From positions 1 through 31,080 of the forward strand of contig JBLNCY010000028.1 in NCBI GenBank assembly GCA_050261115.1: DNA of 31,080 nt. The letters are read 5' to 3'. This document shows positions 7,930 to 31,080 of the stretch, piece after piece. The first letter of the stretch is position 1, and each line of letters starts with the position of its first letter. Under the pieces are notes generated by a model. That model was given only the letters and a program-made list of their open reading frames with translations, was not told where the DNA came from and made no database searches. The stretch is from Methanocella sp. (GTDB taxonomy: Archaea; Thermoproteota; Bathyarchaeia; Bathyarchaeales; Bathycorpusculaceae). Both the position numbers and the translations under genes were made by a program.

Positions 7930-8661
7930 TTGGATCTTGCAGTAGAAGCAAATCAATTAACAAAACAATTCGGCCAAGTACGAGCGCTTGATGGCCTAAG
8001 CTTCCGCATTAAGTGTGGCGAAATTTTCGGTTTAATCGGTCCAAACGGAGCCGGTAAAACAACAACCATCCGTACCGTCTGCACACTAATCAAGCCAACT
8101 TCAGGCGACATAACCATATTTGGTCGAGATGCAGTCAAAGAACCCGAGAAGACCCGGGAAATACTAACTTATCTGCCGGAGGAGTCAGGCGCGTATCCTA
8201 ACCTTACAGGTTGGGAGTATCTGCGGTTTATGGCTAAACTCCAAGCAGCCCCCGGAACCAACATAACTGGCATCGTGGATGAAGCCGCCCAGATTTGCGG
8301 TTTAGGTGACCGATTAAAGGATAAAGCCAAAACCTACAGTAAGGGCATGAAGCGTCGTCTTCTTGTTGCCCGCGCGTTGATGACTAAGCCCAAACTGGCT
8401 GTGCTAGATGAGCCTGCAAGCGGCTTAGACGTAATGCAAGCCTACCACATCCGAGAAATAATAAAGCGATACGTCAAAGAACACGGTGTAACGGTGATGC
8501 TTAGCAGTCATAACATGCTTGAAGTGGACTTCCTATGTGACCGCGTGGCCTTCATCAACAAAGGCAAGTTAGTCATGGAGGGGCAACCCCGAGAACTCAA
8601 AGCGAAATACAACAGCGAGAACCTAGAAGAGGTTTTTGCGAAGGTGGTTGGCTATGCTTAA
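7930..8661 (+). CDS. ABC-2 type exporter ATP-binding protein (NatA-like)
   Basis: GPNGAGKTT, YSKGMKRR, AVLDEP, SSH. TTG 7930 after AAGGA; ATG 7897 is an alternative. Confidence 0.93.
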   Translation: MDLAVEANQLTKQFGQVRALDGLSFRIKCGEIFGLIGPNGAGKTTTIRTVCTLIKPTSGDITIFGRDAVKEPEKTREILTYLPEESGAYPNLTGWEYLRFMAKLQAAPGTNITGIVDEAAQICGLGDRLKDKAKTYSKGMKRRLLVARALMTKPKLAVLDEPASGLDVMQAYHIREIIKRYVKEHGVTVMLSSHNMLEVDFLCDRVAFINKGKLVMEGQPRELKAKYNSENLEEVFAKVVGYA

Positions 8662-9949
8662 AGGCTTTTCCACAATATTGCTAAAAGAGCTCAAAGAGTT
8701 GGTTCGGGATCCCAAGATTCTTGTCGGCATGATTGTGCTACCCTTGGTGATGTTTCCTGTTTTGGGTTTAGTTATGGGTTACGCGGTACAGTCTGCGCAG
8801 GAGGAAGCCCTCAAAGCCAACTTACTAATCGTCAACAACGACACTGACAGCAGCGGCTGGACCACCAATTTCGTAGCATACATGAACTCCAGTATGAACG
8901 TAATAGTCATCGATGACTTAACACCCCAGCAGGTAGTCGATCAAGATTTACTGGCACAGAACAACGCCACAATGTTCCTCTACATACCCGAAGGGTTCAG
9001 CGCTAACCTAACAAGGCACGCAGCAGGCGAATACAACATAACAGGCACAATCACCGCCTATGGCATCTTCAACGCCGGCGGAGGCCTGTTCAGCGGACTT
9101 GGAGGTTCAAGCGTAACCTACCTAGTCGAGATGTTTAACCGAGCAGTCGCACCCGACATGGTAGTAACCACCCAATCCAGCATTATCAAAGGCCAAATCG
9201 AGGAAGGCGTTGACTCAAGCACACTAGCCAGCCTTACGATGACACAAGCCATCGCCCTACCCATAACCATCATGATCATGCTGACATATGCAATGCAAAT
9301 CGCCGCCACAAGCGTCGCCATGGAAAAAGAAGAAAAAACCCTCGAAACTCTCCTAACCACACCAGTAGATCGCTTTGCGGTACTGATGGGCAAAGTCGCA
9401 AGCACCATCATCGTTGCCGGCGTCGCAGCAGTAACAGTGCTAATCGGCTACAATTACATGATTGGCTCAATGACATTCAACATAACCGGGGCAATCGGCA
9501 CAGGCATAGACCTGGTAGCATTGGGTTTAGTGCCATCCATGGGCGGCTACGCACTTTTAGGTGTGAGCCTCTTCTGTACGCTGCTTTCGGCGTTGGCGCT
9601 TGCAGTTGTTATGTCAGCGTTTAGCGAGAACGTTCGCGGCGCACAAGCACTAGTTGGCTACATTTACCCGTTGATCTTCATTCCCTCAATGGCACTGATG
9701 TATCTCGACTTCAACTCGCTACCCATGGCGCTCAAGGCCGTCTTCTATGCGATTCCCTACAGTCACCCAATCATTGCCTCTAGAGCTGTAATTGCAGGCG
9801 ATTATCTTACTGTAGTGCTGGGCATAGTCTACGTTGCTGCATTCACGGTCTTCATAATGTACGTTGCTTCACGCCTATTTGCCACAGAAAAGATCCTAAC
9901 AGCTAAGCTCAATGTAGGCAAGAAAAACAATAAAACCCCAAGCGAATAA
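8654..9949 (+). CDS. ABC-2 type exporter permease (NatB-like)
   Basis: KELKELVRD, EKEEKTLETLLTTPV..GK motif, multiple TM helices; overlaps the ATPase stop. Confidence 0.9.
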   Translation: MLKGFSTILLKELKELVRDPKILVGMIVLPLVMFPVLGLVMGYAVQSAQEEALKANLLIVNNDTDSSGWTTNFVAYMNSSMNVIVIDDLTPQQVVDQDLLAQNNATMFLYIPEGFSANLTRHAAGEYNITGTITAYGIFNAGGGLFSGLGGSSVTYLVEMFNRAVAPDMVVTTQSSIIKGQIEEGVDSSTLASLTMTQAIALPITIMIMLTYAMQIAATSVAMEKEEKTLETLLTTPVDRFAVLMGKVASTIIVAGVAAVTVLIGYNYMIGSMTFNITGAIGTGIDLVALGLVPSMGGYALLGVSLFCTLLSALALAVVMSAFSENVRGAQALVGYIYPLIFIPSMALMYLDFNSLPMALKAVFYAIPYSHPIIASRAVIAGDYLTVVLGIVYVAAFTVFIMYVASRLFATEKILTAKLNVGKKNNKTPSE

Positions 9950-10042: not shown

Positions 10043-11011
10043 TTATATTCCAATACCTAACTCGACGAGGACAACCTGCAGTAAGGCCAAGGGAAGCAGA
10101 TACTTCCACATGCCAGCTATGGATTGGTCAAGCCGTAAACGGGCAAAAATCGCACGCATAAAGGAGACCAGAAGTACCACCGCTATAGTCTTCACCAAAA
10201 ATACCCCTACTGCCGGGACAAAGTAGAAGTCATGTATACCCCCAAAGTATAGCGCGGCTATCAAGGCTGAGGCTAAAACAAGTTCCAAGTTTTTACCCAG
10301 CCGAATCATGGCGAGTTTGCGTCCGCTGAATTCTGTGCGCCAGCCAGCAACTACCTCTGATTCGGATTCGGGGATATTGAAAGGTGAAGCCTCCAACTCT
10401 GCTAATATGCAGATCAACAGGACCCCGAAACCTATCGGTTGAAGGAGAATCAGCCAAGTTGCCTGACTCTGCCACATCGAAATCGTGCTGATAGAGAGGC
10501 TTTGGGCTGCGATTGCAGGGCCGCTCAATGCCAGGGCCATAGGAATTTCAAAGCTCATCATCTGCAAAATAGCTCGGGAGCCACCCATCATGCCGTATCT
10601 ATTCATGGAGCTCCACCCACCCAAAAACACGGTGATAATCAGTAACGCAAAGATGAACATCACAAAGACTAAGTCGCCCTCAAAAGCAGCTAATCCTGTA
10701 TTGCTGGCGATTGGCATAACAAATAGCGCTGTTAAAGGCAGCGTCAAATAGATGATCGGTGTAGCCGTGAACAGGAGCTTGTCGCATACTGCGGGTGTGA
10801 TGTCTTCTTTAGAGAGTAGCTTTATGAAGTCGGCAAAGGGCTGGAGGATTCCTGCGGGTCCTGCACTTGAGGGTCCTCGTCTGTTCTGTATTTTCGCAAA
10901 CGTCTTCCTGTCGATCCATTCGTAGAAGAATGCTAAGGCTAAAAGGAAAAATACGCCTGGAAAAATTATGATTTGTAAGATGCCCAGCGCGACCAAATCT
11001 AAGCCTCTCAA
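10043..11011 (-). CDS. nuoH: Complex I subunit H-like (NuoH/HycD/MbhM) membrane subunit of the hydrogenase
   Basis: DRK..AKIQNRRGP, GILQPFADFIKLLSKE, PFNIPESESEVVAGWRTEFSG, ARLRLDQ. Confidence 0.92.
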   Translation of the reverse strand: MRGLDLVALGILQIIIFPGVFFLLALAFFYEWIDRKTFAKIQNRRGPSSAGPAGILQPFADFIKLLSKEDITPAVCDKLLFTATPIIYLTLPLTALFVMPIASNTGLAAFEGDLVFVMFIFALLIITVFLGGWSSMNRYGMMGGSRAILQMMSFEIPMALALSGPAIAAQSLSISTISMWQSQATWLILLQPIGFGVLLICILAELEASPFNIPESESEVVAGWRTEFSGRKLAMIRLGKNLELVLASALIAALYFGGIHDFYFVPAVGVFLVKTIAVVLLVSFMRAIFARLRLDQSIAGMWKYLLPLALLQVVLVELGIGI

Positions 11012-11067
11012 AGAGCAACATTATGCTAACTTGGCTTTTAACACTATTGATTAAAAACAAAATTTTG

Positions 11068-16051: not shown

Positions 16052-18133
16052 TTGCAGGTAATTGATATTGCCCCTTGGCTTTGCTGGATAATACCCGCCC
16101 TTGGCGCATTAATCTCATTAGCGTTAAGAAAAACCAATCGCCGAACCCAAAACATACTCGTACTCACAACAACATTGCTGAGCTGGATACTAACGCTTCT
16201 GATGGTTCCGACTCTGTTTGACGGCGGCGTCGTTGACCGGCCGCTTTTCTGGTTTAGCATCGCAGGCGCACAAGTCAACGCTGGCCTACTAATCGATACC
16301 CTCAGCGTCATAGTAGCCAACGTCGTCTCCTTCCTAAGCTTCCTAATCATCGTGTACTCCACCAAGTACATGGCCGAAGATCCCTCCATCGCCCGCTTCT
16401 GGTTCTTCATGCAACTCTTCGTCTCATCCATGCTACTGCTGGTGTTAGCGGACAACCTTATCCTGATGTTTGTCGGCTGGAAAATGGTAAGCATCTGCAG
16501 CTTCGGCTTAATCGGCTACTACTACCGCGACGAAAAAGAACACTGCATCGGCGGCCCCGCACCTTTTCCCTTCCAGAAACCAAGCCGCAACGGCCTAAAA
16601 GCCCTCCTCATTACAACCCTAGGCGACACCGGGCTACTCGCAGGCATAATAATCCTCTACCTCCATGCGCATACCTTCAACTTCTTGGAGTTGCTTCAAA
16701 CCGCGGGTACATGGTTGCCCTCGATGGCGGCAACCCCTGGCTTACTCACCCTAACCTGTGTTTTGCTGCTACTTGGGCCCTTAGCTAAATCCGCCCAGTT
16801 CCCCTTTCACGAGTGGCTCCCCGAAGCAATGTCTGGGCCCACGCCGGTCAGCGCCTTAATCCACGCGGCTACTATGGTGAAAGCAGGCGTCTATCTCATC
16901 GCGCGGTTGCTTCCAATCTTTTTCTTCGCCGTTTGGGTAGCAACCCCCGCTTATCCGGAAGCGTTAACCTTCTTTATCGTCGCCGCTGCCATCGGTGCGT
17001 TTACTGCTTTCCTTGGTGCTACACAGGCGATCGTAGCTAAGGAACTCAAGAAGGCCCTCGCCTACTCCACAATGAGCGCCATAGGGTACATGGTTCTCGC
17101 ATTAGGCATCTCCGGATTAAGCGAGTCATCGCTTGTTGCAGGCACTTCTGCCTCAATCTTTTTCCTAATCAACCATGGCATCTTCAAAGTTGTCCTGTTC
17201 CTATGCGCCGGCGTCGTCATCCATGCGGCAGGCTCAATCTATCTTGACCACATGAACCTTTCAACAAAGCGAATGCGCTTTACAACGGGTTTCATGTGGA
17301 TAGGCAGTTTAGCTTTGATGGGTGTGTTTCCACTTTCGGGCTTCTGGAGCAAAGACAACGTGCTAATAGCATGCCTAGAAAGTGGTCAATACGTCGTGTT
17401 TGCTGTTGCATTACTCTCTGTGGTGCTGACTTCGTTCTATGTTTTTCGGATGATGGGGTTAATTTTCCATACCGGAATACCTGACGGTAACATTCACCGA
17501 GAACAAGAATTCCATGACCGCAAACTAGCTGAAGATCATGCGCATGGCGAAGAAGGTCACTGGATAGAAGTCTTACCCTACGGTATACTGGCTATCCTAA
17601 CCGTGCTGATTGGATTGGTCGGGCCTTTAGTGGGTGACTTTTTAGCCTCAGCTTTTTCCAACTATTACGCTAGTATGGGTCTCGCAGTGGGGGCTGATGC
17701 GCACTTTAGTGTTTTTGGGCTCAGCGGCTTAGGCTTAGAGGCCCTAGTTGCAGTTGCATCTACACTCATGATTCTTATCGGCGCTGTGCCCGCATACATA
17801 CTCTACATTAAACCCACCTCAAACCCGGGAAACCTACTTCCTGAACGGGGCTTACGCAGAAAAATCTACAATTTCCTTTGGAACCGCTGGTACATCAACG
17901 CATTCTACAATAAAGTTTTCGTGCAACCCTCGATTAAGCTCGGCGGTCTGGTTCAGCACTACATCGAGGACCCACTAAACAGCGCCATCAACGGTGGCAT
18001 ACCTGCAATCCTTAAACGGCTAAGCACCGCCTTCAGCAGGCTCCAAACAGGTAAACTCAGAAACAACATGGCTTACCTGCTGGCGGCGCTTGTAGTTGCG
18101 TTAATCATCCTTTGGCTGGGAGGTTTCATCTAA
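16052..18133 (+). CDS. nuoL: Antiporter-like subunit (NuoL/MrpA-like)
   Basis: AKSAQFPFHEWLPEAMSGPTPVSALIHAATMVKAGVY, GFWSKD, C-terminal amphipathic helix and LQTG. Confidence 0.9.
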   Translation: MQVIDIAPWLCWIIPALGALISLALRKTNRRTQNILVLTTTLLSWILTLLMVPTLFDGGVVDRPLFWFSIAGAQVNAGLLIDTLSVIVANVVSFLSFLIIVYSTKYMAEDPSIARFWFFMQLFVSSMLLLVLADNLILMFVGWKMVSICSFGLIGYYYRDEKEHCIGGPAPFPFQKPSRNGLKALLITTLGDTGLLAGIIILYLHAHTFNFLELLQTAGTWLPSMAATPGLLTLTCVLLLLGPLAKSAQFPFHEWLPEAMSGPTPVSALIHAATMVKAGVYLIARLLPIFFFAVWVATPAYPEALTFFIVAAAIGAFTAFLGATQAIVAKELKKALAYSTMSAIGYMVLALGISGLSESSLVAGTSASIFFLINHGIFKVVLFLCAGVVIHAAGSIYLDHMNLSTKRMRFTTGFMWIGSLALMGVFPLSGFWSKDNVLIACLESGQYVVFAVALLSVVLTSFYVFRMMGLIFHTGIPDGNIHREQEFHDRKLAEDHAHGEEGHWIEVLPYGILAILTVLIGLVGPLVGDFLASAFSNYYASMGLAVGADAHFSVFGLSGLGLEALVAVASTLMILIGAVPAYILYIKPTSNPGNLLPERGLRRKIYNFLWNRWYINAFYNKVFVQPSIKLGGLVQHYIEDPLNSAINGGIPAILKRLSTAFSRLQTGKLRNNMAYLLAALVVALIILWLGGFI

Positions 18134-20209: not shown

Positions 20210-22585
20210 TTGAAACTTTTTTTCTGGCTGCTAGATATAAACCCTAAAGTTAACGACGGCAAAGTAGACATCTGGCTATGGGGCATCGACCAGTCAGGAA
20301 ACCGCATCCTACTAATCGACCACAACTTTAGCACATACTTCTATGCTGTCCTGCATGGCGCAGCGGACGGGACACTAATTTTACAGCAGATAATGCTTCG
20401 CTATGGCGGTCTTGTTTCCAACGCAGAAGTTGTTTCCCGCCGATTTTTTGGTAAACCCGTTACCGCAATCAAAGTTACATGCAAAGTTGCTACCCAAGTC
20501 ACCAAAATAGCTCGGCAAGTGCGCAAACTCGATGGCGTATCTGACTGCTATGAGGACGACATACGCACTGCCATGCGTTACTTAATAGACAACAATGTTA
20601 TTCCCTGCGGTTGGAATGAAGCTGACGTAGGGCCAGAAGAGTTTCCGCCACCGGTTAGAGCCTCAAGCGTTTACAAAGTTAATTCCTCGCCTAGGTCGGT
20701 GGAAGACGTCGGGGTTACGCCCGCTTTGCGGGTGATTGCTTTTTCCATGATTTGCTACAGTAAAGAAGGAACCCCAAAACCTGACCGAAACCCCATCCTA
20801 ATGATCTCCATTGTTGATAGTCAAGGTGGCCAAAAACAGTTCATCGCAAACCAAGACAGAGACGATAAACAAGTTATTCAAGAATTCATCCCATACATCC
20901 GCCGATTCGACCCAGATGTTATTGTAAGTTATGGCGGGAACACCACTGACTGGAATTATCTATTGCAGAGAAGTCATCTGCATGGTTTTTTGCTTAATCT
21001 TGACCGGGGCTCCTTTGAGCCGCATGCAAGCATATATGGCCATATGGCGATTGCGGGTATAGCTAATGTGGATTTAGTTGATTTTACCGATATGTTTCCA
21101 GAAGTCAAGGTCAAGACCCTTGAACATGTCGCTGATAACTTGGGTGTCACTATGGGGCAACGGGGAGTTATAGACCAGGTCTTATTCGCTGACTACTGGG
21201 ATGACCCCGACAAGCGTGATCTGCTGCTTGCTTTTAATTTAGATAATGCCCGCCGAATATACGGTGTTGCTTTGTTGTTGCTTGATTTCGCTATACAACT
21301 CTCCAGCCTAACTAATCTCCCCTTAGATCATGTGATGACCGCCGCCACGGGCTTCCGCGTCGAATGGTATCTGATTAAGCGGGCGCAGAAGTCCAGCGAG
21401 ATAATTCCTCGACGCGTAGAACAATCCTACATGCCCTACACGGGTGGACTCGTGCTCTCCCCCAAGCCTGGGCTGCATGACAATGTTGCTGTTTTAGACT
21501 TCAAGTCCATGTACCCCAACATCATGATAACTTACAATATTTCGCCCGACACCTACATTCAACCAGGCGACCCTTTACCTCCTGACGGTGTCTATGTGGC
21601 GCCTGAAGTAGGATACCAATTCCGAAAATCACCCCCTGGATTTTACAAAGAAGCCCTCACTTACCTACTTGATGTGAGACGCCAAATACGCCAAAAAATG
21701 AAAACCCTGACTGCCAGTTCTGTTGAGTATCAGGTGCTGGATGCCCGCCAAAAAGCGGTAAAAATCCTAACCAACGCAGCTTACGGATACGCTGGCTGGG
21801 TAGGGGCAAGATGGTACATAAAACCCGTAGCTGAAGCAGCCTCAGCATGGGGGCGACACATCATCTTAACCGCCTCACAGACGGCACAGCAACTACACAT
21901 TCAAGTAATCTACGGAGACACAGACAGCCTCTTCATAAAATACGACAAAGCAAAAGCAGAACAGCTACAGGCAAACATACAAAGAGACCTAAAGTTCGAG
22001 GTGGAAATCGGTGAGATTTATCGGCGGATTTTCTTTACGGAGGCAAAGAAACGCTATGCTGGGCTGCGTCAAGACGGCAGTTTGGATATTGTGGGTTTGG
22101 AGGTTATTCGGGGTGACTGGGCTGAGGTGGCAAAGAAGGTGCAGGAGCATGTGCTTGAGATTATTCTAAAGGAGCAGTCGCCCACGGAAGCGCTTGAGTA
22201 TGTTAGGGGTGTTGTGAAGGACTTGCGGCGTAGGATTGTGCCGCTTGAAGATTTGGTTATTTGGAAGACGCTTACAAAGCCACCTAAGGCGTATGCTGTT
22301 AGGGCTCCGCATGTGGAGGTAGCTAAGATGCTAATCGAGAAGGGTTGGCGGCTTAGTGTCGGCGACAAGGTGGGGTATGTGGTGCTATCAGGGAAGGGGC
22401 CTTTGTATGCACATGTCGCGCCCTACGTTTATGCCAAACCCGATCAAATAGATATGGACTACTATATTACTAACCAAGTTCTGCCGGCTGCGGCGCGTAT
22501 ACTTAACTTTTTTAATGTAACCCAAAAAGAGTTAGAATCAAAAACAAAAGAAGAAAAAACAAAAAGCCTAACAGATTATTTTTAG
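20210..22585 (+). CDS. polB: Family B DNA polymerase (PolB3-like) with degenerate 3'-5' exonuclease motifs
   Basis: DFKSMYP, KILTNAAYGY, YGDTDS, KKRYAG, RGDW and C-terminal PIP-like TKSLTDYF. Confidence 0.95.
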   Translation: MKLFFWLLDINPKVNDGKVDIWLWGIDQSGNRILLIDHNFSTYFYAVLHGAADGTLILQQIMLRYGGLVSNAEVVSRRFFGKPVTAIKVTCKVATQVTKIARQVRKLDGVSDCYEDDIRTAMRYLIDNNVIPCGWNEADVGPEEFPPPVRASSVYKVNSSPRSVEDVGVTPALRVIAFSMICYSKEGTPKPDRNPILMISIVDSQGGQKQFIANQDRDDKQVIQEFIPYIRRFDPDVIVSYGGNTTDWNYLLQRSHLHGFLLNLDRGSFEPHASIYGHMAIAGIANVDLVDFTDMFPEVKVKTLEHVADNLGVTMGQRGVIDQVLFADYWDDPDKRDLLLAFNLDNARRIYGVALLLLDFAIQLSSLTNLPLDHVMTAATGFRVEWYLIKRAQKSSEIIPRRVEQSYMPYTGGLVLSPKPGLHDNVAVLDFKSMYPNIMITYNISPDTYIQPGDPLPPDGVYVAPEVGYQFRKSPPGFYKEALTYLLDVRRQIRQKMKTLTASSVEYQVLDARQKAVKILTNAAYGYAGWVGARWYIKPVAEAASAWGRHIILTASQTAQQLHIQVIYGDTDSLFIKYDKAKAEQLQANIQRDLKFEVEIGEIYRRIFFTEAKKRYAGLRQDGSLDIVGLEVIRGDWAEVAKKVQEHVLEIILKEQSPTEALEYVRGVVKDLRRRIVPLEDLVIWKTLTKPPKAYAVRAPHVEVAKMLIEKGWRLSVGDKVGYVVLSGKGPLYAHVAPYVYAKPDQIDMDYYITNQVLPAAARILNFFNVTQKELESKTKEEKTKSLTDYF

Positions 22586-23811
22586 GCTTGATCTTTAGGA
22601 ATGACGCTTTGGAATGTCATCAATTCAACGTTAAGCGCGGGCTTCACTGCTTCTGAGACGCGTGAGGCAACGATGCGTTTGATGTTTTTGTCTCCTGCAA
22701 TGTCAACGATACGTTGGGTGATGATGCCGTCAAAGACTACTGTGTCCACGCCTGAGATTTGCTGAAGTCTCTCGGCAAGCTGGCTTACTGGTAGGCGCTC
22801 AATTAACTCAAGTTTCTCGTTTAAGACGACTGCTTCAAGTGTGCCCACGAGCGCTTTTGCTGCTTGTATGATTGTGTCTGGTACCTCGACTTTTGGGGGT
22901 TTGGGACGTTCTTGTGGTGGTGGAGGTACTTGGACCTGTGGCTGCGGTGCTGGAGCTTTCTTGGGTTGCGGTGGCGCAGGTTGCTTGCCTTGGAGTAGTT
23001 CGCTGACTGGCACACGGCCTTCGATTGCTTCGTTGATTTCTTTGCAGTTGCATTCTTCGATTTCTTTTCCGCGTGGTGCGCGGCCGATGTATTTTATGTT
23101 GGTGACTTGGAGTAGCTCTTTTTGGATTAAGTCGCCGCCTCTGTCGCCGTCAAGTAATGCCGTTGCATTGCGTTCTTTGGTTATTTTTCTGATTGAGTCG
23201 GGGACTTTGGCGCCTTCAAGTGCTACAGTGTTAAAGATTCCGCAGCGCATGAGGTTTATGATGTCTGCTCGACCTTCGACTACAAAGATTTCTTTGGCGC
23301 CTTCTAAGCCTGGGCCTGCAGGTAGGTCTTCGGGGCCGTATTTTTCGACTTTGCCTACTTTCATGGTGTCACTTATTTCTTTGTAGACTTCATCTACGCT
23401 TGGCATTGATTCGATGTTCCAGCGGTGTAGGATTTCTTTTGCGCGGTCTATGATGATTTTTCGGCGGGCTTCTCGTATGTCTTCGATGCGTTCGAGGGTT
23501 ACTTTGGCGCTGCAGGGGCCTACGCGGTTGATGCTTTCTACGCTTGCGGCTATGAGTGCTGTGGATACTCGGTCGAGGCTGGTGGGTATGGTTATGCTGC
23601 CGTTTGTGCGGTCGTTTTTAGAGTGTAGGTCGATTTCGATTCTGCCGATGCGTCCGGTTTTCTGTAGTTCTCGGAGGTCGAGTTCTGGGCCGAAAAGTCC
23701 TTCTGTTTGGCCAAAGACTGCGCCTATAACATCGGGTTTTTCTACTACGCCTTCAATTTCAAATCTAGCATGTACAACGTACTTTATCGTAAAGGTTTGG
23801 GATTGTCCCGT
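22582..23811 (-). CDS. dnaG: Archaeal DnaG (TOPRIM primase-like, exosome-associated), about 409 aa, non-canonical start
   Basis: The frame stays open 135 codons upstream of the track's ATG 23406 and encodes KY.....EIEGVVEKPDVIGAVFGQTEGLFGPELDLRELQKTGRIGRI; TOPRIM VVEGRAD and DGDRGG; VFDGIITQR. Start inferred at ACG 23811. Confidence 0.93.
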   Translation of the reverse strand, partial: TGQSQTFTIKYVVHARFEIEGVVEKPDVIGAVFGQTEGLFGPELDLRELQKTGRIGRIEIDLHSKNDRTNGSITIPTSLDRVSTALIAASVESINRVGPCSAKVTLERIEDIREARRKIIIDRAKEILHRWNIESMPSVDEVYKEISDTMKVGKVEKYGPEDLPAGPGLEGAKEIFVVEGRADIINLMRCGIFNTVALEGAKVPDSIRKITKERNATALLDGDRGGDLIQKELLQVTNIKYIGRAPRGKEIEECNCKEINEAIEGRVPVSELLQGKQPAPPQPKKAPAPQPQVQVPPPPQERPKPPKVEVPDTIIQAAKALVGTLEAVVLNEKLELIERLPVSQLAERLQQISGVDTVVFDGIITQRIVDIAGDKNIKRIVASRVSEAVKPALNVELMTFQSVIPKDQA

Positions 23812-23868
23812 AAATATACAACTCCTGTAAATTATTTGTTATTTATTTGATTATGTAATCGTCACTTA

Positions 23869-23889
23869 TTGCGAGTGTTCTACTCGCAA
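23869..23889. promoter_or_regulatory. Perfect 8-bp inverted repeat between dnaG and the ParB-like gene
   Basis: TTGCGAGT-gttct-ACTCGCAA. Confidence 0.45.
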
Positions 23890-24046
23890 GATGAGATTAT
23901 GATCTGATTAGAAATTAGGGTGCATGCCGTCATATAACACTTGTGGTATTGTAGCACAGACAGATAAGAGGCTATCCCCCCGTTTTACATGCGTTCCTCC
24001 TTGCACTTTTATATACTTACACATACAACAAGGATTAGGATCCCAC

Positions 24047-24829
24047 ATGAGCCTGCGCATAAACCCAACTTACGATAAGATGCTACCCCGCATGTCTGAG
24101 GAAGAATTCGCTGAACTAAAAAAATCCATAGAAACCGAAGGCCAACACTATCCCATCATAGTAAACGAAGACCTCGAAGTACTCGACGGACATCACCGCT
24201 ATCGCGCCTGTGTCGAACTTGGCATAGACCCTGATTTCGAAGTCAAAAGATTCGAGGACAAACTCCTTGAGAAAAAATTTGTCATAGAAGCTAACCTAAG
24301 AAGGCGCCACCTAAACAACTTTCAACTTGTCGAGTTAGCAGTGCCTCTGCTTGAAATCGAAAAGGCACTGGCAAAACAGCGGCAACCCAAAAGTGGCAAA
24401 AGCGATGCCATTCAGCAATTCAATGCTGAAGAAGAGGATTTGCCCCTTGAGCCTGTAATCAAAGCAAAAGCAACCGAAGTTGTCGCCAAAAAGGCAGGTG
24501 TCTCAACCCGTACGCTTGAGAAGGGTAAAAAAATTCTAGAAAAAGCCGACGAAGAAGACTTGCAGAAGCTTAGGGAAGGCAAGACAAGCATATCCCGAGT
24601 GTATCAAGAAATAGTCAACGCCGGCAAACCTCCCGCGCCAGAGCCCGAACCCCCCAAGTTAGATCCGGCTCAAGAGCTACGCAACAAAGAAGAGCTACTT
24701 ACAATCCTAGAGAAACTGCTAAACAACGACCTCTTCTGCCCATCTTGCGGTAACACCATGTTTGAATGCAGCAAATGCCACCGTAACCTCAAAGAGTTAC
24801 TTGCAAAATTCAAAGCAGAAAACCTCTAA
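24047..24829 (+). CDS. ParB/Srx N-terminal-domain protein with HTH and C-terminal zinc ribbon
   Basis: LKKSI..EGQHYPIIVN...VLDGHHRYRAC, NLRRRHL, VAKKAGVSTRT, CPSC..CSKC; TTTATATA about 32 nt upstream of ATG 24047. Confidence 0.85.
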   Translation: MSLRINPTYDKMLPRMSEEEFAELKKSIETEGQHYPIIVNEDLEVLDGHHRYRACVELGIDPDFEVKRFEDKLLEKKFVIEANLRRRHLNNFQLVELAVPLLEIEKALAKQRQPKSGKSDAIQQFNAEEEDLPLEPVIKAKATEVVAKKAGVSTRTLEKGKKILEKADEEDLQKLREGKTSISRVYQEIVNAGKPPAPEPEPPKLDPAQELRNKEELLTILEKLLNNDLFCPSCGNTMFECSKCHRNLKELLAKFKAENL

Positions 24830-25501: not shown

Positions 25502-25641
25502 AACAATAGCTACTCGTATGCCCATTTATGCTTTTTGAATACCCGCATATACTCGGTACAATCTTAAAGAGCATGCAAGCTATCCATAGATGGACAATTT
25601 ACAGCTTTAAATTAATCAAATTACAGGAAGTAACTAGTGAA

Positions 25642-28600
25642 ATGACTCACGAAAAACTCAACGCTTTCGGAAAACTCGGTCGATTAATAACTAAGAGAAA
25701 ATTCGCGGTCCTCAGCATCTGGATTTTACTATTAGCAATTATTCTTCCAGTTGTGTTTACAGCCGCAGGCTATACTTCTTTAACGTTTGATTCTTCCACC
25801 GACGAAAACACCGAATCGGGCAAAGCAAGCAGCATAATTAAGGAGCACTTTAAAAGCGCAGTATCTAACGATTCTCTCATAATAGTCATATCTACTGATG
25901 ACGCGTCGTCGATTGAGACCCAAGCTTTTGTGGACGAGTTGGTAGATAGACTCCAAAATGACACCCGCCTGATAGGCGTCGAAAACGTAACAAGTATTTA
26001 CTCGATTCTTATTCCCGCACTTAACCAAACAAACCAAGCGGTTTATCTAGTCTATAACAATGGGAACTTAACCTACAACCTGCTCTACAGTGTCCCAACG
26101 ATTTACTCAAAAGTCTGGGATACCGCCTTCAACACAGCATTATCACAGTTAGTTCCAGGATTAAACCAAACCAACCAAGCAGTCTATCAACTTATCCCAG
26201 CCGCAAACCAAACCTACAACCTACTATACAGCGTACCCTACATTTACGCAAACGTCTACGCCAACGCCTACAACACAACCCGCGACTCAACCCTGGTTCC
26301 AGCAATCAACCAAACAAACCAAGGCGTCAACACCGTTCTATACAACGCAAACATGACCTGTAATCTCCTCTACGGTCCAGGCGCATTGTACCTTCAATAC
26401 TGGGTAGCCAATTATACCGAAACCTTCGATGTCACTCAAGCCAATGACTACGCTAACCAAATGACCGACCAAACACTACAGCAAGCCGATCCTAACGCCT
26501 ACGCATACACCTCACAGGTACTTGCCATATTCCATAATGCATGGCAAAGCACATTCACAAACTTCACAAACCCCGCCATGACCCCCCAGGAGCGTGCTAT
26601 TGCCGCCTCAGCAATAACCACCCAAACATACATAGCATCCCTACCCGACGCAACCGAAGCACAGTTTGTCACTGCTGTCACAAGCACCCTAACCTTCCAA
26701 GATTACCTCTCAAATAGTCAAGAACAGAACAACGCTATACTAACTGGGCTATCCATTCAGATGGTTGCCATCCAAGGAGGCGTCTCAACAGAGTACGTTA
26801 CTGCTGCTTATGGCTTGGGCATAAACCCCTCTTTCTCTTCATTAACTGCTCTAGCTGAGAGCATTATCCAAACACCAAACGCATACAATATGGGCACAGA
26901 CTTCATCTCAACTTTTAATGAAGTTGCCTATAACCAAACCCGCGACATCCTATCCCAAGCCGACGCAGACGCCTATGCGCAGTATACGGGTCCTCTTCTA
27001 TCTGCCTTTAACACCACTTGGGTACTTAGCTTTCAAAACACAACTCTACAATCATACCCAGTTATGCAGCGTGCTTCACTGGCTGCAAACATAACTAACA
27101 AGGCTTTCATTGAGCAAGCTTTCAGCGGAAACGCCACTGCCAAAGCCTTCGCAACAGCAGTAATCAACTCTTTCTCGTTTGAAACTTACATAAATAACAC
27201 ATTAACTAACAACGCTAACCTCCAGGGGCAACTGGAAAACTTTGCAATCCGCTTTATAGCTAACCAAGCGGACAGCACAGAGGCGTTTGTTAGGGCAGCC
27301 TACACTCTAGGCTCCGCGCCCAGCCAGGCTTCCCTAACTTCAAAGGCTAAAGACATCATCTGGCATGGCACCAACTATGGCATGGATAACTTCCTAACGG
27401 AATTCAACAAGGTCTCCTTTGACCAAACTAAATCAATCCTTGAAAAAGCAGACAAAGAAGCATACGCAAACTACACTTCCCACATGCTATCATACTTCAA
27501 CACTGCCTGGGCTGCAAGAATACCCAGCTCGCCAACTGAGAACTGGATCAACAACACCGCAGCAAAGGCCAGCCAGGAAGCGAACACGAAATTCATCGCT
27601 AACCACCTTGGCGACAATCAAGACTTCGCAAACGCCATAGCCCAAACCTTCATGCTAAGCGACTTTATGTCAGGCAACACATCATACACCAACGCAAAAC
27701 TCTACGATTTCACAATTAACTACGTGGCTAACGAGTCTGGCTTATCCGAGGACTTAGTGAAAGCTATATTCGGTATGGGAGAGAACGCAACTCTAACTGC
27801 TCTAAGAACCTTAGCCTCAGATATTGTATATGACCCCTACTACTACAATGTAGGCGATGGGCTAGATACGGCAATTTCGTCGTTTGTTTCTCCCCAAAAC
27901 GATGTTACACTGGTGTCTATCACTTTTGATGATTCCCATGACGAAAACCTCTTGGTAATAAGAGACATCACCCAGACTATGCTCGCGAAAAACCCCCTTG
28001 ACATCACTGGAGTGGACGTTACGGGTTCTGACGCCATCAACTTTGACTTCATGGAGGCAACTAATGCAGACTTAGACTTGATTCTCCCTGTCACCATCGC
28101 CCTGCTGGTAATAGCGACTGCTTTGTTCTTCCGATCAATCGTAACCCCTATCATTACCTTGGGTACAATCGGTATCGGCCTTGGCGTTTCACAGATCTTC
28201 CCATACTTGGTGGGTACCTACATCAACCCCGTTGACTACACCATCTCAACCGTACTCTTAACAGTCATCTTAGGAGTCGGAACCGACTACAGCATCTTTG
28301 TCATTGCACGGCACCGAGAAGAACGAATCAACGGGTTACCCGTAATTGAAGCAATCAAACAATCCGTCACTTGGGCGGGCGAGAGTATCGTTACAAGCGG
28401 CATAACCGTCATCATCTCCTTCCTTGCCTTGTCATTTACAAGCACCGTTATGCTTCAAACCATGGGCTTAATCATTGGATTAGGCGTCATAGTTACGCTT
28501 TTGGCCTCCCTAACCGTTGCGCCAGCATTAACAGCCATCTTAGGCGATAGAATTTTCTGGCCAAATACGGGTAAACGCTTTGAAAAGTACGCGGAAGGTA

Positions 28601-29844
28601 TAGCTGAAAAGAATCGGCAAAAAGGCGGCTACTTCGCACGAAGCGGCGCCTTCTCAGTGAAACATGGTAAGGCAATCATACTTGTCGCCATACTGATCAC
28701 TGTGCCAGCCTTCTACCTCTACTCGACCACAACACAAACCTACGATGTCATCGGCAGCGCCTCCAACAACCTTGAATCCATCCGAGGCATGAACAGCCTG
28801 ACGGACTCTTTTGGCGGCGGCAGAATGTTACCCTCCTATGTAGTGGTCACCTTCTCCAGCCCAATACTGTATAGTAATGGCAGCTTTAACATGGAAAAGA
28901 TGTCCGCGTTAGATGACATCGCAACCTACATTGTAGGACATGACGGCGTTGACAAAGTAACTGGACCAACTAACCCCTACGGAACCACAGTGGATTACCA
29001 CTCAATAACCAACGACTCTGACTACACAACATACAGCAGCATGATAAGCTGCATCGGCGACGACAACAGCTCCGCCTTGATAACCGTCCAGTTCACCGCT
29101 GACCCCTACTCCACCACAGCAATGGATGTTGCAGAAGACATCCGAACAAACCTGCACCAAAACTTCGACAACACAACCGACCTAACAGGCCTCTATCTTG
29201 GCGGAACAACAGGAGCAATTCTTGACCAAAGAAGCAACTTTGAGCAAGAATTCAATGCGATTCTTCCCATCGTCATTATAGGCGTAGGCATCGTGCTCTT
29301 CATAGTGTTGGGTTCGCTGATTTTGCCGATTTTCGCAGTACTCTCCGTGTTGATGAGTATTGTTTGGACGCTCGCCGCCACGATAATTGTCTTCCAATCC
29401 TTCTTTGGATACGGCATGCTATTCATGACCCCGCTCATCCTCTTCGTACTATTGCTAGGCATAGGCATGGACTACAACATCTTTATCTTGACACGCATAC
29501 GTGAGGAAGCAGCCAAGGGCAAAAGCCAAAACGAAGCCATCATAAACGCCATACAGCAGACTGGCGGAATCATTACAGCAGCCGCCATCATACTTGCAGG
29601 CTCACTAGGCGCACTCATGCTATCGAGCAACATGATGCTATGCGAAATGGGATTCGCGTTCGCGTTTAGTATCTTAATCGATGCGCTGGTTGTGCGAACC
29701 TATCTTGTGCCGGCGGTTATGTCGACCTTTGGCAAATGGAACTGGTACAATCCAATCAAACGTTTACGCCGAGTCAAAGAAGACAATGCAAACCCTGCCA
29801 TCGCAGCCGATTCCGAGGATAGGCCTCAATCAACGGGGAACTAA
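25642..29844 (+). CDS. MMPL/RND family transporter with a very large extracytoplasmic insertion (1400 aa)
   Basis: GVGTDYSIFVIARHREE and GIGMDYNIFILTRIREE, TGGIITAAAIILAG, DALVVRTYLVPA; ATG 25642. Confidence 0.92.
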   Translation: MTHEKLNAFGKLGRLITKRKFAVLSIWILLLAIILPVVFTAAGYTSLTFDSSTDENTESGKASSIIKEHFKSAVSNDSLIIVISTDDASSIETQAFVDELVDRLQNDTRLIGVENVTSIYSILIPALNQTNQAVYLVYNNGNLTYNLLYSVPTIYSKVWDTAFNTALSQLVPGLNQTNQAVYQLIPAANQTYNLLYSVPYIYANVYANAYNTTRDSTLVPAINQTNQGVNTVLYNANMTCNLLYGPGALYLQYWVANYTETFDVTQANDYANQMTDQTLQQADPNAYAYTSQVLAIFHNAWQSTFTNFTNPAMTPQERAIAASAITTQTYIASLPDATEAQFVTAVTSTLTFQDYLSNSQEQNNAILTGLSIQMVAIQGGVSTEYVTAAYGLGINPSFSSLTALAESIIQTPNAYNMGTDFISTFNEVAYNQTRDILSQADADAYAQYTGPLLSAFNTTWVLSFQNTTLQSYPVMQRASLAANITNKAFIEQAFSGNATAKAFATAVINSFSFETYINNTLTNNANLQGQLENFAIRFIANQADSTEAFVRAAYTLGSAPSQASLTSKAKDIIWHGTNYGMDNFLTEFNKVSFDQTKSILEKADKEAYANYTSHMLSYFNTAWAARIPSSPTENWINNTAAKASQEANTKFIANHLGDNQDFANAIAQTFMLSDFMSGNTSYTNAKLYDFTINYVANESGLSEDLVKAIFGMGENATLTALRTLASDIVYDPYYYNVGDGLDTAISSFVSPQNDVTLVSITFDDSHDENLLVIRDITQTMLAKNPLDITGVDVTGSDAINFDFMEATNADLDLILPVTIALLVIATALFFRSIVTPIITLGTIGIGLGVSQIFPYLVGTYINPVDYTISTVLLTVILGVGTDYSIFVIARHREERINGLPVIEAIKQSVTWAGESIVTSGITVIISFLALSFTSTVMLQTMGLIIGLGVIVTLLASLTVAPALTAILGDRIFWPNTGKRFEKYAEGIAEKNRQKGGYFARSGAFSVKHGKAIILVAILITVPAFYLYSTTTQTYDVIGSASNNLESIRGMNSLTDSFGGGRMLPSYVVVTFSSPILYSNGSFNMEKMSALDDIATYIVGHDGVDKVTGPTNPYGTTVDYHSITNDSDYTTYSSMISCIGDDNSSALITVQFTADPYSTTAMDVAEDIRTNLHQNFDNTTDLTGLYLGGTTGAILDQRSNFEQEFNAILPIVIIGVGIVLFIVLGSLILPIFAVLSVLMSIVWTLAATIIVFQSFFGYGMLFMTPLILFVLLLGIGMDYNIFILTRIREEAAKGKSQNEAIINAIQQTGGIITAAAIILAGSLGALMLSSNMMLCEMGFAFAFSILIDALVVRTYLVPAVMSTFGKWNWYNPIKRLRRVKEDNANPAIAADSEDRPQSTGN
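26008..26420 (+). repeat. Three 47-48-aa intragenic repeats (type A) in the MMPL loop
   Basis: L(I/V)P(A/G)(L/I)NQTNQ(A/G)V...N.T.NLLY starting at 26008, 26149 and 26293. Confidence 0.9.
26450..27845 (+). repeat. Three ~160-aa intragenic repeats (type B) in the MMPL loop
   Basis: T..(T/I)L..AD..AYA.YT...L..F...W...F..A(V/I)...V.A(AY/IF).(L/M)G, with AD at 26485, 26959 and 27448. Confidence 0.85.
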
Positions 29845-29849
29845 TCCCC

Positions 29850-29872
29850 TCTTTCTATTTCCTTTTTTCTTG
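29850..29872 (+). terminator. Pyrimidine/oligo-T terminator of the MMPL gene
   Basis: TCTTTCTATTTCCTTTTTTCTT directly after the stop. Confidence 0.5.
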
Positions 29873-29966
29873 TGCTAAACCAGTGTAAGCTTTAGCAATT
29901 TTTCTAACGCTGATTCTCAATAACTGTCTTGCCCTCTGTAGTTCTGGCAAGTGCAACTTTGGCAAG

Positions 29967-29975
29967 TTATAAATA
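29967..29975 (+). promoter_or_regulatory. Putative TATA box of the PQQ-repeat gene
   Basis: TTATAAATA about 30 nt upstream of the AGGAG at 30005. Confidence 0.5.
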
Positions 29976-30019
29976 ATACATATATCGAAAAAGGAATCCT
30001 ATTCAGGAGAGAGAAAAGT

Positions 30020-31080
30020 ACGAGAAACATAAAGAACTTAAAACAAAAAATCATTGCAACAGCAATCGTTGCAGTGATGCTGCTCTCAATCTCAGCGCTA
30101 ACTCCCACCGCTTCAGCAGCAGACTACCCTACCTGGCTATTCTTAACAGTGCAACCAGATCCCATAGGCATCGGCCAAGCCGCAAACGTTGTCTACTGGC
30201 TCGATAAAGCGCCACCCACCGCGTCTGGACCACGAGGCGACCGATGGCAAGGCTGGACACTTGAAATCACAGACCCCGACGGCGCCAAAAAAACCATGAA
30301 ACTAGCCGAATCAGACGCAGCCGGTTCAGGCATAATAAAATTCGTCCCTGACAAGCTTGGCAACTACACCTTCAAGATGTATTTCCCAGGACAGAACATA
30401 ACCCAGGGCTCAGCCATAAACTGGTATAAACCCTCAGAAAGCGCAACCGTACAGTTGACTGTTCAGGAGGACCAGATACAGCCAATACCCTACATACCCC
30501 TACCAACAGATTACTGGAGCCGACCCATAAACGCGGCAAACCACGGCTGGAATCAGCTGGGCGGCAACTGGTTAGCCGGAGGCTCAGCAGGACCCCACGG
30601 ACCCAGATGCTATGACAGCAACGGCAACTTTAACCCCTACGGCACCGCGCCAAACTCACCCCACGTCATGTGGACAAAGGAGATCGCTTTTGGTGGAATC
30701 GTCGGTGAAGCAACAGGTGACACTAACTATTTCCCAGGCGAAACCTATGACCGCAAATTCCAGCCACCAATCATCATGCAGGGCAGACTCTACTATAACC
30801 AACGCTTAGGCGTCGCTGGCTGGCAAGGCCTTTACTGCGTCGATTTACAGACCGGCGAAGAAATTTGGTTCAAGAACGCTACTACTGCAACTTTTGGTCA
30901 ATTACTTGACTGGCAGACACCCAACGTACACGGTATCATCCCGCACCTCTGGGCTGTTTCTGGAAGTACCTACAAGATGTATGATGCATTCACAGGCGAC
31001 TGGATACTCGACGTACAAAACGTACCCTCAGGCACCATGGTCTATGGACCAAACGGCGAAATCCTAATCTACACATTAAC
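30020..31080 (+). CDS. Secreted PQQ-like beta-propeller repeat protein, truncated at the window edge, non-canonical start
   Basis: Not in the ORF track. Signal peptide RNIKNLKQKIIATAIVAVMLLSISALTPTASA, then PDPIGIGQ, DYWSRPINA.N.GW...GNWL, APNSPHVMWTKEIAFGGIVG, PPIIMQGRLYY, GLYCVDLQTGEEIW. Confidence 0.8.

Follow-up and report, generated by a model that had tools for sequence, protein, structure and literature searches.

Evidence for ACG translation starts behind Shine-Dalgarno elements in a Bathyarchaeia lineage: a probable secreted beta-propeller gene, dnaG and hflX

The window analyzed here is a stretch of 31,080 nucleotides (nt) from Methanocella sp. (Archaea; Thermoproteota; Bathyarchaeia; Bathyarchaeales; Bathycorpusculaceae). 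It is one entire contig (JBLNCY010000028.1, here C28) of assembly GCA_050261115.1, a genome of 2.15 Mb in 66 contigs, 47% G+C and 95% complete, which we call G000. At its right end the window holds the 5' part of a gene for a probable secreted beta-propeller protein (the 30020 gene), in which an ACG codon follows a Shine-Dalgarno (SD)-like element at the place expected for a start codon; the dnaG gene in the same window has the same arrangement. Comparison with related sequences suggests that ACG 30020 is most likely the translation start of the 30020 gene, and the use of ACG as a start codon across the lineage is well supported. The features in question are as follows.

29951-29953, plus strand: GTG, upstream canonical alternative start (rejected), located upstream of the TATA box
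29967-29975, plus strand: TATA-like box TTATAAATA, putative promoter element, downstream of GTG 29951
30005-30009, plus strand: SD-like AGGAG, complementary to the 16S rRNA 3' end GGAUCACCUCCU
30020-30022, plus strand: ACG, proposed initiation codon, at the same position as the ATG of orthologs L151, L152 and L153
30020-30118, plus strand: predicted Sec-type signal peptide of 33 codons, from by-eye reading of the translation
30020-31078, plus strand: 5' part (353 codons) of a gene for a probable secreted beta-propeller (PQQ-like) paralog of about 870 residues, ended by the contig end
30022, plus strand: shared first base of RNA contigs from three metatranscriptome studies (X12 record 8, with adapter joined; X13 record 16; X14 record 24)
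30029-30031, plus strand: ATA, near-cognate alternative start, 19 nt after the SD element
30074-30079, plus strand: GTG-ATG, rival start inside the hydrophobic core, with no SD-like site (run 2)
22582-23811, minus strand: dnaG, with ACG at 23811-23809 and AGGAG at 23826-23822, N10 spacing

Direct reading of the window gives AGGAG at 30005-30009, a spacer agagaaaagt of 10 nt, and ACG at 30020-30022. The 16S rRNA of this genome terminates in GGATCACCTCCT, and AGGAG is therefore a true SD match; the aligned SD-to-ACG spacing of 9 nt falls within the 7-10 nt peak observed for SD-led ATG starts of the genome. The open reading frame (ORF) containing ACG 30020 is open from 29941 and exits the contig end at 31078, and GTG 29951, ATA 30029, GTG 30074 and ATG 30077 all share its frame. 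The product read from ACG, (M)RNIKNLKQK-IIATAIVAVMLLSISAL-TPTASA/ADYP, has a basic n-region, a hydrophobic core of 17 residues and an A-S-A site. The only canonical codons available to the gene are GTG 29951, 23 codons upstream of ACG, and the GTG/ATG pair at 30074/30077 within the core. The preliminary description of this DNA had reported the AGGAG-N10-ACG arrangement here and at dnaG, a complete signal peptide read from ACG, and a poor fit of the alternatives, with GTG 29951 upstream of the TATA box, 30074/30077 inside the core and ATA 30029 in frame; all of these coordinates and readings proved correct.

A box similar to the TATA-like element of the 30020 gene (cTTATAAct or cTTATTAgc) is found 44-49 nt ahead of the ATG in orthologs L151 and L152. 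TATA-like words also occur at -56 to -41 before the SD-led starts of the genome, in a position profile whose sparse motif hits do not fix the promoter geometry. The stretch is represented in seventeen public runs from 11 studies, including six metatranscriptomes of digesters and sludge. We compared the window with three RNA runs and one DNA run, all in the form of contigs rather than reads; contigs drop rare variants and cannot show a transcript start. The DNA contig X2 (record 32) spans 29012-30400 without a difference at ACG 30020, and the codon is therefore no assembly error. A second contig of the same DNA run matches the window from 29986 on and has 255 unlike letters before this position; a related strain appears to carry a different promoter region ahead of the same SD element and ACG.

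The 30020 gene belongs to a large family of probable BamB-type propeller proteins of about 870 residues, with 28 tblastn matches in its own genome; matches also occur in 25 relatives, ranging from 8 to 54 per relative. No Pfam family was found in the window fragment of the gene, which the preliminary description had labeled a PQQ-repeat gene; in a full-length paralog on contig C20, 37% identical by tblastn, PQQ_2 is located at residues 485-591 (E = 1.9e-8), beyond the point where the window ends. The signal-peptide layout (basic n-region, hydrophobic core, small-x-small site) is common to 27/27 paralogs of this genome with a visible N-terminus, as read by eye, and none of the 27 contains an internal stop. 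By the same reading, their start codons are ATG (20), TTG (5) and ACG (2), the last being the 30020 gene and the C20 paralog (C20:23646). Both ACG paralogs lack a canonical codon before the hydrophobic core, except for the distant GTG 29951 in the 30020 gene.

An initial search of relatives gave no ortholog closer than 48% identity, and the true orthologs, nine genes with 71-83% identity, came from a scan of species genomes. In the nearest of them, L151, L152 and L153 (80-83% identity), an ATG precedes the conserved Met of the MLLS motif by exactly 19 codons, the same distance as for ACG 30020, and has a GGAG-type SD element 8-13 nt ahead of it. These three orthologs also conserve, within the core, the Met encoded at 30077. 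Among all nine, the signal-peptide start is ATG in seven and TTG in one, and the remaining ortholog (L156) has no canonical codon there, its only candidate being an ATA behind AGGGGGA. As protein, the upstream stretch shows no conservation; a stop closes the frame two codons ahead of the ATG in L153 and within six codons in L159. The alignment with the ortholog ATG, together with the unconserved upstream stretch, places ACG 30020 at the ancestral start and indicates that GTG 29951 is no feature of the family.

The most extensive evidence for ACG starts comes from dnaG and hflX. The first canonical start of dnaG in the window, ATG 23406, would cut 135 conserved residues of the N-terminal domain. 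The start codon of this gene is ACG in 80/80 public relatives, and in 73 of these the open frame upstream lacks any canonical codon. Across 29 relatives from the genus and from other families of the order, ACG is present in 24, ATG at the same codon in 4, and an indel-shifted start in 1, with an SD element 8-10 nt upstream throughout. A Thr codon located seven codons downstream varies among ACG, ACT and ACC, whereas the start ACG is constant, which shows that the latter is under constraint beyond the coding of Thr. At the level of the class, three relatives of the same family have ACG, and other families have ATG or TTG at or adjoining that place; one class-level relative (L310, genome G097) has only a CTG at SD spacing. 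The hflX gene (G000:C12:25035; L179:236) begins with ACG in 29/29 congeners, about 10 nt downstream of GAGGAGG-like SD elements, and in 6/30 loci a stop codon immediately precedes the ACG. Lineage-wide ACG initiation, proposed in the preliminary description from two genes, is well supported by these two conserved starts and by the exchange of ACG and ATG in order-level relatives.

Two further observations concern these loci. An Ile codon three codons into hflX was considered as a start and rejected, this position being occupied by Val or Leu in several genomes. Between dnaG and a divergent ParB-like gene, a perfect 8-bp hairpin is located at 23868-23890 (TTGCGAGT, loop AGAAC, ACTCGCAA on the minus strand), within the RNA contig cover of dnaG.

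For a genome-wide test, as proposed in the preliminary description, we used 2042 non-overlapping stop-to-stop ORFs of at least 100 codons and scanned the zone from the ORF opening to nine codons before the first canonical start for codons having an SD element at spacing 6-10. Aligned spacings of 7-10 nt are the most frequent among SD-led ATG starts, and an SD run of at least 5 precedes 270/1584 first ATGs vs 267/4920 interior positions. ACG ranks first of all codons in this test, with an SD element at 9 of 102 sites vs 1.73 expected (p = 8e-5), and no other non-canonical codon is significant in the test zone of this genome. By spacing (n = 104), nine ACG sites fall at 6-10 nt, none at 0-4 nt and one at 13-17 nt. 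Near-cognate codons pooled are not enriched in this genome (23/1172 vs 133/8231, p = 0.22), and the signal is therefore specific to ACG. ATA in particular shows no excess (5/244 at SD spacing vs 8 and 4 of 244 at the control spacings), nor do ATT and ATC at SD spacing. Thus, of the relaxed or expanded start-codon use suggested earlier, the part concerning ACG stands, whereas near-cognate codons as a group give no such signal in this genome.

Six of the nine sites were judged strong: those of a PD-(D/E)XK-domain protein, the C20 paralog, a membrane protein, hflX, dnaG and a methyltransferase. The other three, on C51, on C31 and at an Alba gene that has a good ATG 16 codons on, were judged doubtful. 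Three further sites, including that of the 30020 gene, lie outside the test zone owing to a chance canonical codon upstream. We estimate about 10-12 ACG-start genes among some 2040 long ORFs, or approximately 0.5%, and not the two in about 30 genes that the window alone had suggested; the occurrence of two such genes on one 31-kb contig is a coincidence rather than a rate. Within the window, AGGAG-N10-ACG is found twice vs 0.5 expected, and 10/100 shuffles reach at least two, so this count is compatible with chance. ACG accounts for approximately 3% of SD-led starts at spacings 7-10, compared to 244 ATG, 124 TTG and 43 GTG starts. The strong ACG candidates in this genome include C64:12311 and C6:98102, and CTG stands at SD spacing with no canonical start nearby at C52:5930 and C27:8530, one of them a signal-peptide gene.

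In five genes (the 30020 gene, the methyltransferase, a DtxR-type repressor, the membrane protein and the C20 paralog), ACG is, as judged from the alignments, peculiar to the species and located on the ancestral start. For the methyltransferase (C8:43171), the next canonical codon lies inside the SAM-binding domain, and the start in 28 relatives is TTG (25), ATG (2) or TTG one codon on (1). The Pfam N-terminal domain of the DtxR-type repressor (C57:17472) aligns residue 4 to profile position 4; in 27 relatives this gene starts with ATG (16) or GTG (1), has a canonical codon at the next position (6), or has another codon (4). The membrane protein (C8:67566) has ATG in 14 of 18 relatives, TTG in one, ATA in one and ATG one codon up in two; the ATA case is its closest relative (L276, genome G050), where ATA stands behind TAGGAGG at the start position. 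The C20 paralog has ATG in five of nine relatives, TTG in two and ATG within three codons in two. As a separate observation, a conserved palindrome TAGGTnnACCTA is located just upstream of the DtxR-type repressor in most congeners (L216-L244; G000:C57 at about 17480-17500). It is probably the repressor's own operator, and in G000 it holds an in-frame GTG that gene callers would be expected to choose.

A second genome (G003) was scanned over its first 1.2 Mb, where ACG is found at SD spacing in 4/57 cases vs 0.88 expected, and in 1/57 at each control spacing. These sites represent three genes, encoding a pilin-like protein, an Lrp/AsnC regulator and one unclear product. CTG is found in 5/59 cases vs 0.91 expected and in 0/59 at both control spacings; the CTG cases (C1:82525, 654254 and 6095) include the uS11 gene and a DegT-type aminotransferase. 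A pooled scan of the loci from other genomes was dominated by the purposely chosen dnaG and hflX loci and is useless as a statistic; with these removed it leaves four ACG sites, which serve as examples only and include MBF1 of two genomes and a paralog (L170). The MBF1-like zinc-ribbon gene adjoins hflX (L262:943 and L264:916; genomes G055 and G008) and has ACG behind AAGGTGA, its first canonical codon being located 71-79 codons beyond. ATA or ATT is found behind a strong SD element at otherwise startless gene starts in L276, L156, L018 and G003 (C1:660449 and 133682), with no statistical excess.

The preliminary description had also proposed inspecting the initiation machinery for unusual substitutions, and none are apparent in the initiator tRNA or aIF1. 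The initiator tRNA (C31:91637-91715) is ordinary, with anticodon CAU, an A1-U72 pair and an anticodon stem that has three G-C pairs at its foot. The initiation factor aIF1 (C51:28125-28343; 102 residues) can be aligned over its whole length, free of indels, to Methanocaldococcus aIF1 (4MO0, E = 2e-32) and looks ordinary, in an alignment that gives no reading of start-codon fidelity.

The following mechanism would be consistent with these data. The promoter with the TATA box at 29967-29975 would yield an mRNA leader of about 20 nt. AGGAG at 30005-30009 would pair with the 3' end of 16S rRNA and, to judge from the spacing, place ACG in the P site. The ordinary initiator Met-tRNA (CAU) would read ACG with a mismatch at the middle base, and the protein would begin with Met. 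The lineage would accept ACG as a weak start, with about ten scattered ACG starts in the genome, and ACG would be kept at dnaG across the order and at hflX across the genus, where it probably holds the protein level low. A broader interpretation, in our judgment evenly balanced between right and wrong, is that ACG is a regular, selected, SD-led start codon of archaea that this Bathyarchaeia order has long retained as a throttle at dnaG and hflX and that arises in a few genes per species, and that CTG (e.g., in the uS11 gene of G003), and perhaps ATA and ATT, are used likewise.

Several observations weigh against ACG initiation at the 30020 gene or limit the genome-wide argument: (i) ACG in this gene is found in no other species, and selection on ACG 30020 itself is not demonstrable from the orthologs, so a loss of the start may be very recent; (ii) as the chief argument against the ACG start, in all three studies the RNA contigs over the gene start at 30022, on the last base of the ACG, one of them with an Illumina adapter, and if 30022 is the true 5' end, ACG is off the mRNA and GTG 30074 and ATG 30077 are the first canonical starts; (iii) only a few genes make up the genome-wide excess, and in a looser count (16 ACG sites vs 5.2 expected) ACG is also high at flanking spacings (19 vs 12.2), which makes that count only moderately significant; and (iv) the synonymous distances (dS 0.9-1.9) are saturated, so the ratios of nonsynonymous to synonymous change (dN/dS) given below are rough.

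The first two of these points would be explained by a mutation of an ATG start to ACG, one transition away, with the ACG left unread. Translation would then begin at GTG 30074 or ATG 30077 and give a shortened signal peptide, or the gene would be a very young pseudogene. We regard this explanation as improbable on several grounds. No SD-like site precedes 30074/30077 (run 2), the product would lack the basic n-region seen in all 27 paralogs, and the Met at 30077 is a core residue that the orthologs conserve. The gene itself is intact and transcribed, and purifying selection acts on it: no stop interrupts its 352 codons, dN/dS against the orthologs is 0.055-0.106 (0.054-0.085 among the orthologs themselves and about 0.08 on the G000 branch), and RNA contigs of three studies cover it. 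A search of dN/dS, stops and RNA contig cover for relaxed constraint or further lesions, as expected of a pseudogene, found none. All five species-specific ACG genes are intact; dN/dS is 0.09-0.15 for the C20 paralog and the DtxR-type repressor, and saturation of dS in two of the five gene sets left no value for the methyltransferase or the membrane protein. Start loss would thus require five recent losses, all to ACG, whereas ATA, the other transition product, shows no excess.

The contig ends at 30022 have a counterpart at the neighboring ParB-like gene (24047-24829, plus strand), where RNA contigs begin equally sharply at 24058 (X12 with adapter, and X14), 11 nt inside the gene. Both ATG 24047 and the N-terminal peptide MSLRLNPEYDKLLP are conserved in 37/38 orthologs from 109 loci examined, the remaining one having ATA, and the real mRNA therefore extends at least 11 nt upstream of the contig end at 24058. 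The start of this gene is ATG 24047 and not ATG 23924 of the longest ORF, and TTTATATA is found at 24008-24015. The usual distance from an archaeal TATA box to the transcription start is about 26 nt. The ends at 30022 and 24058 are both 46-51 nt after the center of a strong TATA box, some 20-25 nt beyond this distance. From this comparison, which draws on one other gene and on contigs, we infer that the contig ends were recessed by library preparation, that the true start is near 30000, and that the SD element and ACG are on the mRNA.

A start at another in-frame near-cognate codon, ATA 30029, ATC 30050 or ATT 30053, is quite unlikely. In its favor, the closest relative of the ACG-starting membrane protein has ATA at SD spacing where its start is expected, ATA is the sole candidate in ortholog L156, ATA and ATT candidates occur in G003, and ATA 30029 would still be on an mRNA beginning at 30022. 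However, ATA 30029 lies 19 nt after the SD element, outside the spacing peak, and is not conserved in the orthologs; the ortholog ATG aligns with ACG, and ATA, ATT and ATC are without excess at SD spacing.

GTG 29951, the only in-frame canonical start upstream of the hydrophobic core and the choice of a gene caller, would add 23 residues before the signal peptide, and we consider it very unlikely. The TATA box is downstream of this codon, stops interrupt the extension in L153 and L159, and a T-rich terminator-like site of the upstream gene is located at 29835-29859. No listed RNA contig reaches back to join GTG 29951 to the gene, and the depth of X12 is 0 in 29628-29891; this is weak evidence, coming from contigs whose uncovered parts (e.g., 29783-30021 in X13) are no evidence of absence.

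C-to-U editing of the ACG in the mRNA would explain an ACG at a start-codon position, but it finds no support in the data and is highly improbable. At the dnaG ACG (position 23810), no C-to-U difference was seen in three RNA runs (contig depths 20.8, 15.9 and 30.8) and one DNA run, in contigs that leave partial editing possible and, for RNA, miss position 30021. A dedicated initiator-like tRNA with anticodon CGU is hardly credible, since none is present among the 41 tRNAs found by Aragorn in a genome that is 95% complete and so could hide a missed gene, and the single CGU-anticodon tRNA, with a G1-C72 pair and an anticodon stem lacking three consecutive G-C pairs at its foot, looks like an elongator.

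ACG initiation has counterparts in other systems. In eukaryotes and viruses, ACG serves as a near-cognate start, e.g., for VP2 of adeno-associated virus and the C' protein of Sendai virus. The ACG starts described here would presumably resemble them in using the ordinary initiator Met-tRNA with one mismatch, with weaker initiation and a low protein level; they differ in being placed by SD pairing 9 nt upstream rather than by scanning and a Kozak context, and in being fixed over whole lineages in the housekeeping genes dnaG and hflX. The start codons of NCBI table 11 are ATG, GTG, TTG, CTG, ATT, ATC and ATA, and AUU is the start of the bacterial infC gene. As in infC, a particular gene keeps a weak start downstream of a ribosome-binding site, plausibly for low expression; unlike the rare starts of table 11, ACG is a second-position mismatch and, to our knowledge, is not among the codons of that table. 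In plant organelles, ACG start codons are restored to AUG by C-to-U editing. The similarity to organelles is limited to the ACG in DNA at the start of conserved genes, whereas at the dnaG ACG the C is unchanged in the RNA contigs of three runs. A full-text literature search found no description of ACG starts in archaea: in passages of one source ACG figures solely as the Thr codon of a viral tRNA (10.64898/2026.09.13.751334), and those of another contain no ACG start (PMC8211752).

If ACG initiation is confirmed, start selection in archaea would be looser than thought and would resemble the eukaryotic kind even though it is placed by a bacterial-type SD element, and the conserved cases would provide a concrete example of archaeal expression control through the start codon. 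There are also consequences for annotation. Gene callers accept only ATG, GTG and TTG, and sometimes CTG and ATN. Consequently mis-called starts would deprive dnaG of 135 residues, place the methyltransferase start inside the SAM-binding domain, and leave the 30020 gene either extended at the N-terminus or without its signal peptide. Across thousands of Bathyarchaeia genomes, such errors would skew what is predicted about secretion, domain content and orthology.

Among the other starts in the window, TTG had earlier been credited to at least five genes. Eight window ORFs of at least 100 residues are TTG-first, but only two have an SD-like site, namely TTG 16052 (run 7) and the minus-strand ORF 10043-11020 (run 4), and the count of five is thus unverified. 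The TTG-first ORF 8627-9949 has an SD-led ATG nine codons in; genome-wide, TTG is a common SD-led start. Directly upstream of the 30020 gene, positions 25528-29844 on the plus strand encode an MMPL-family protein of 1438 residues, in which the Pfam MMPL domain is matched twice.

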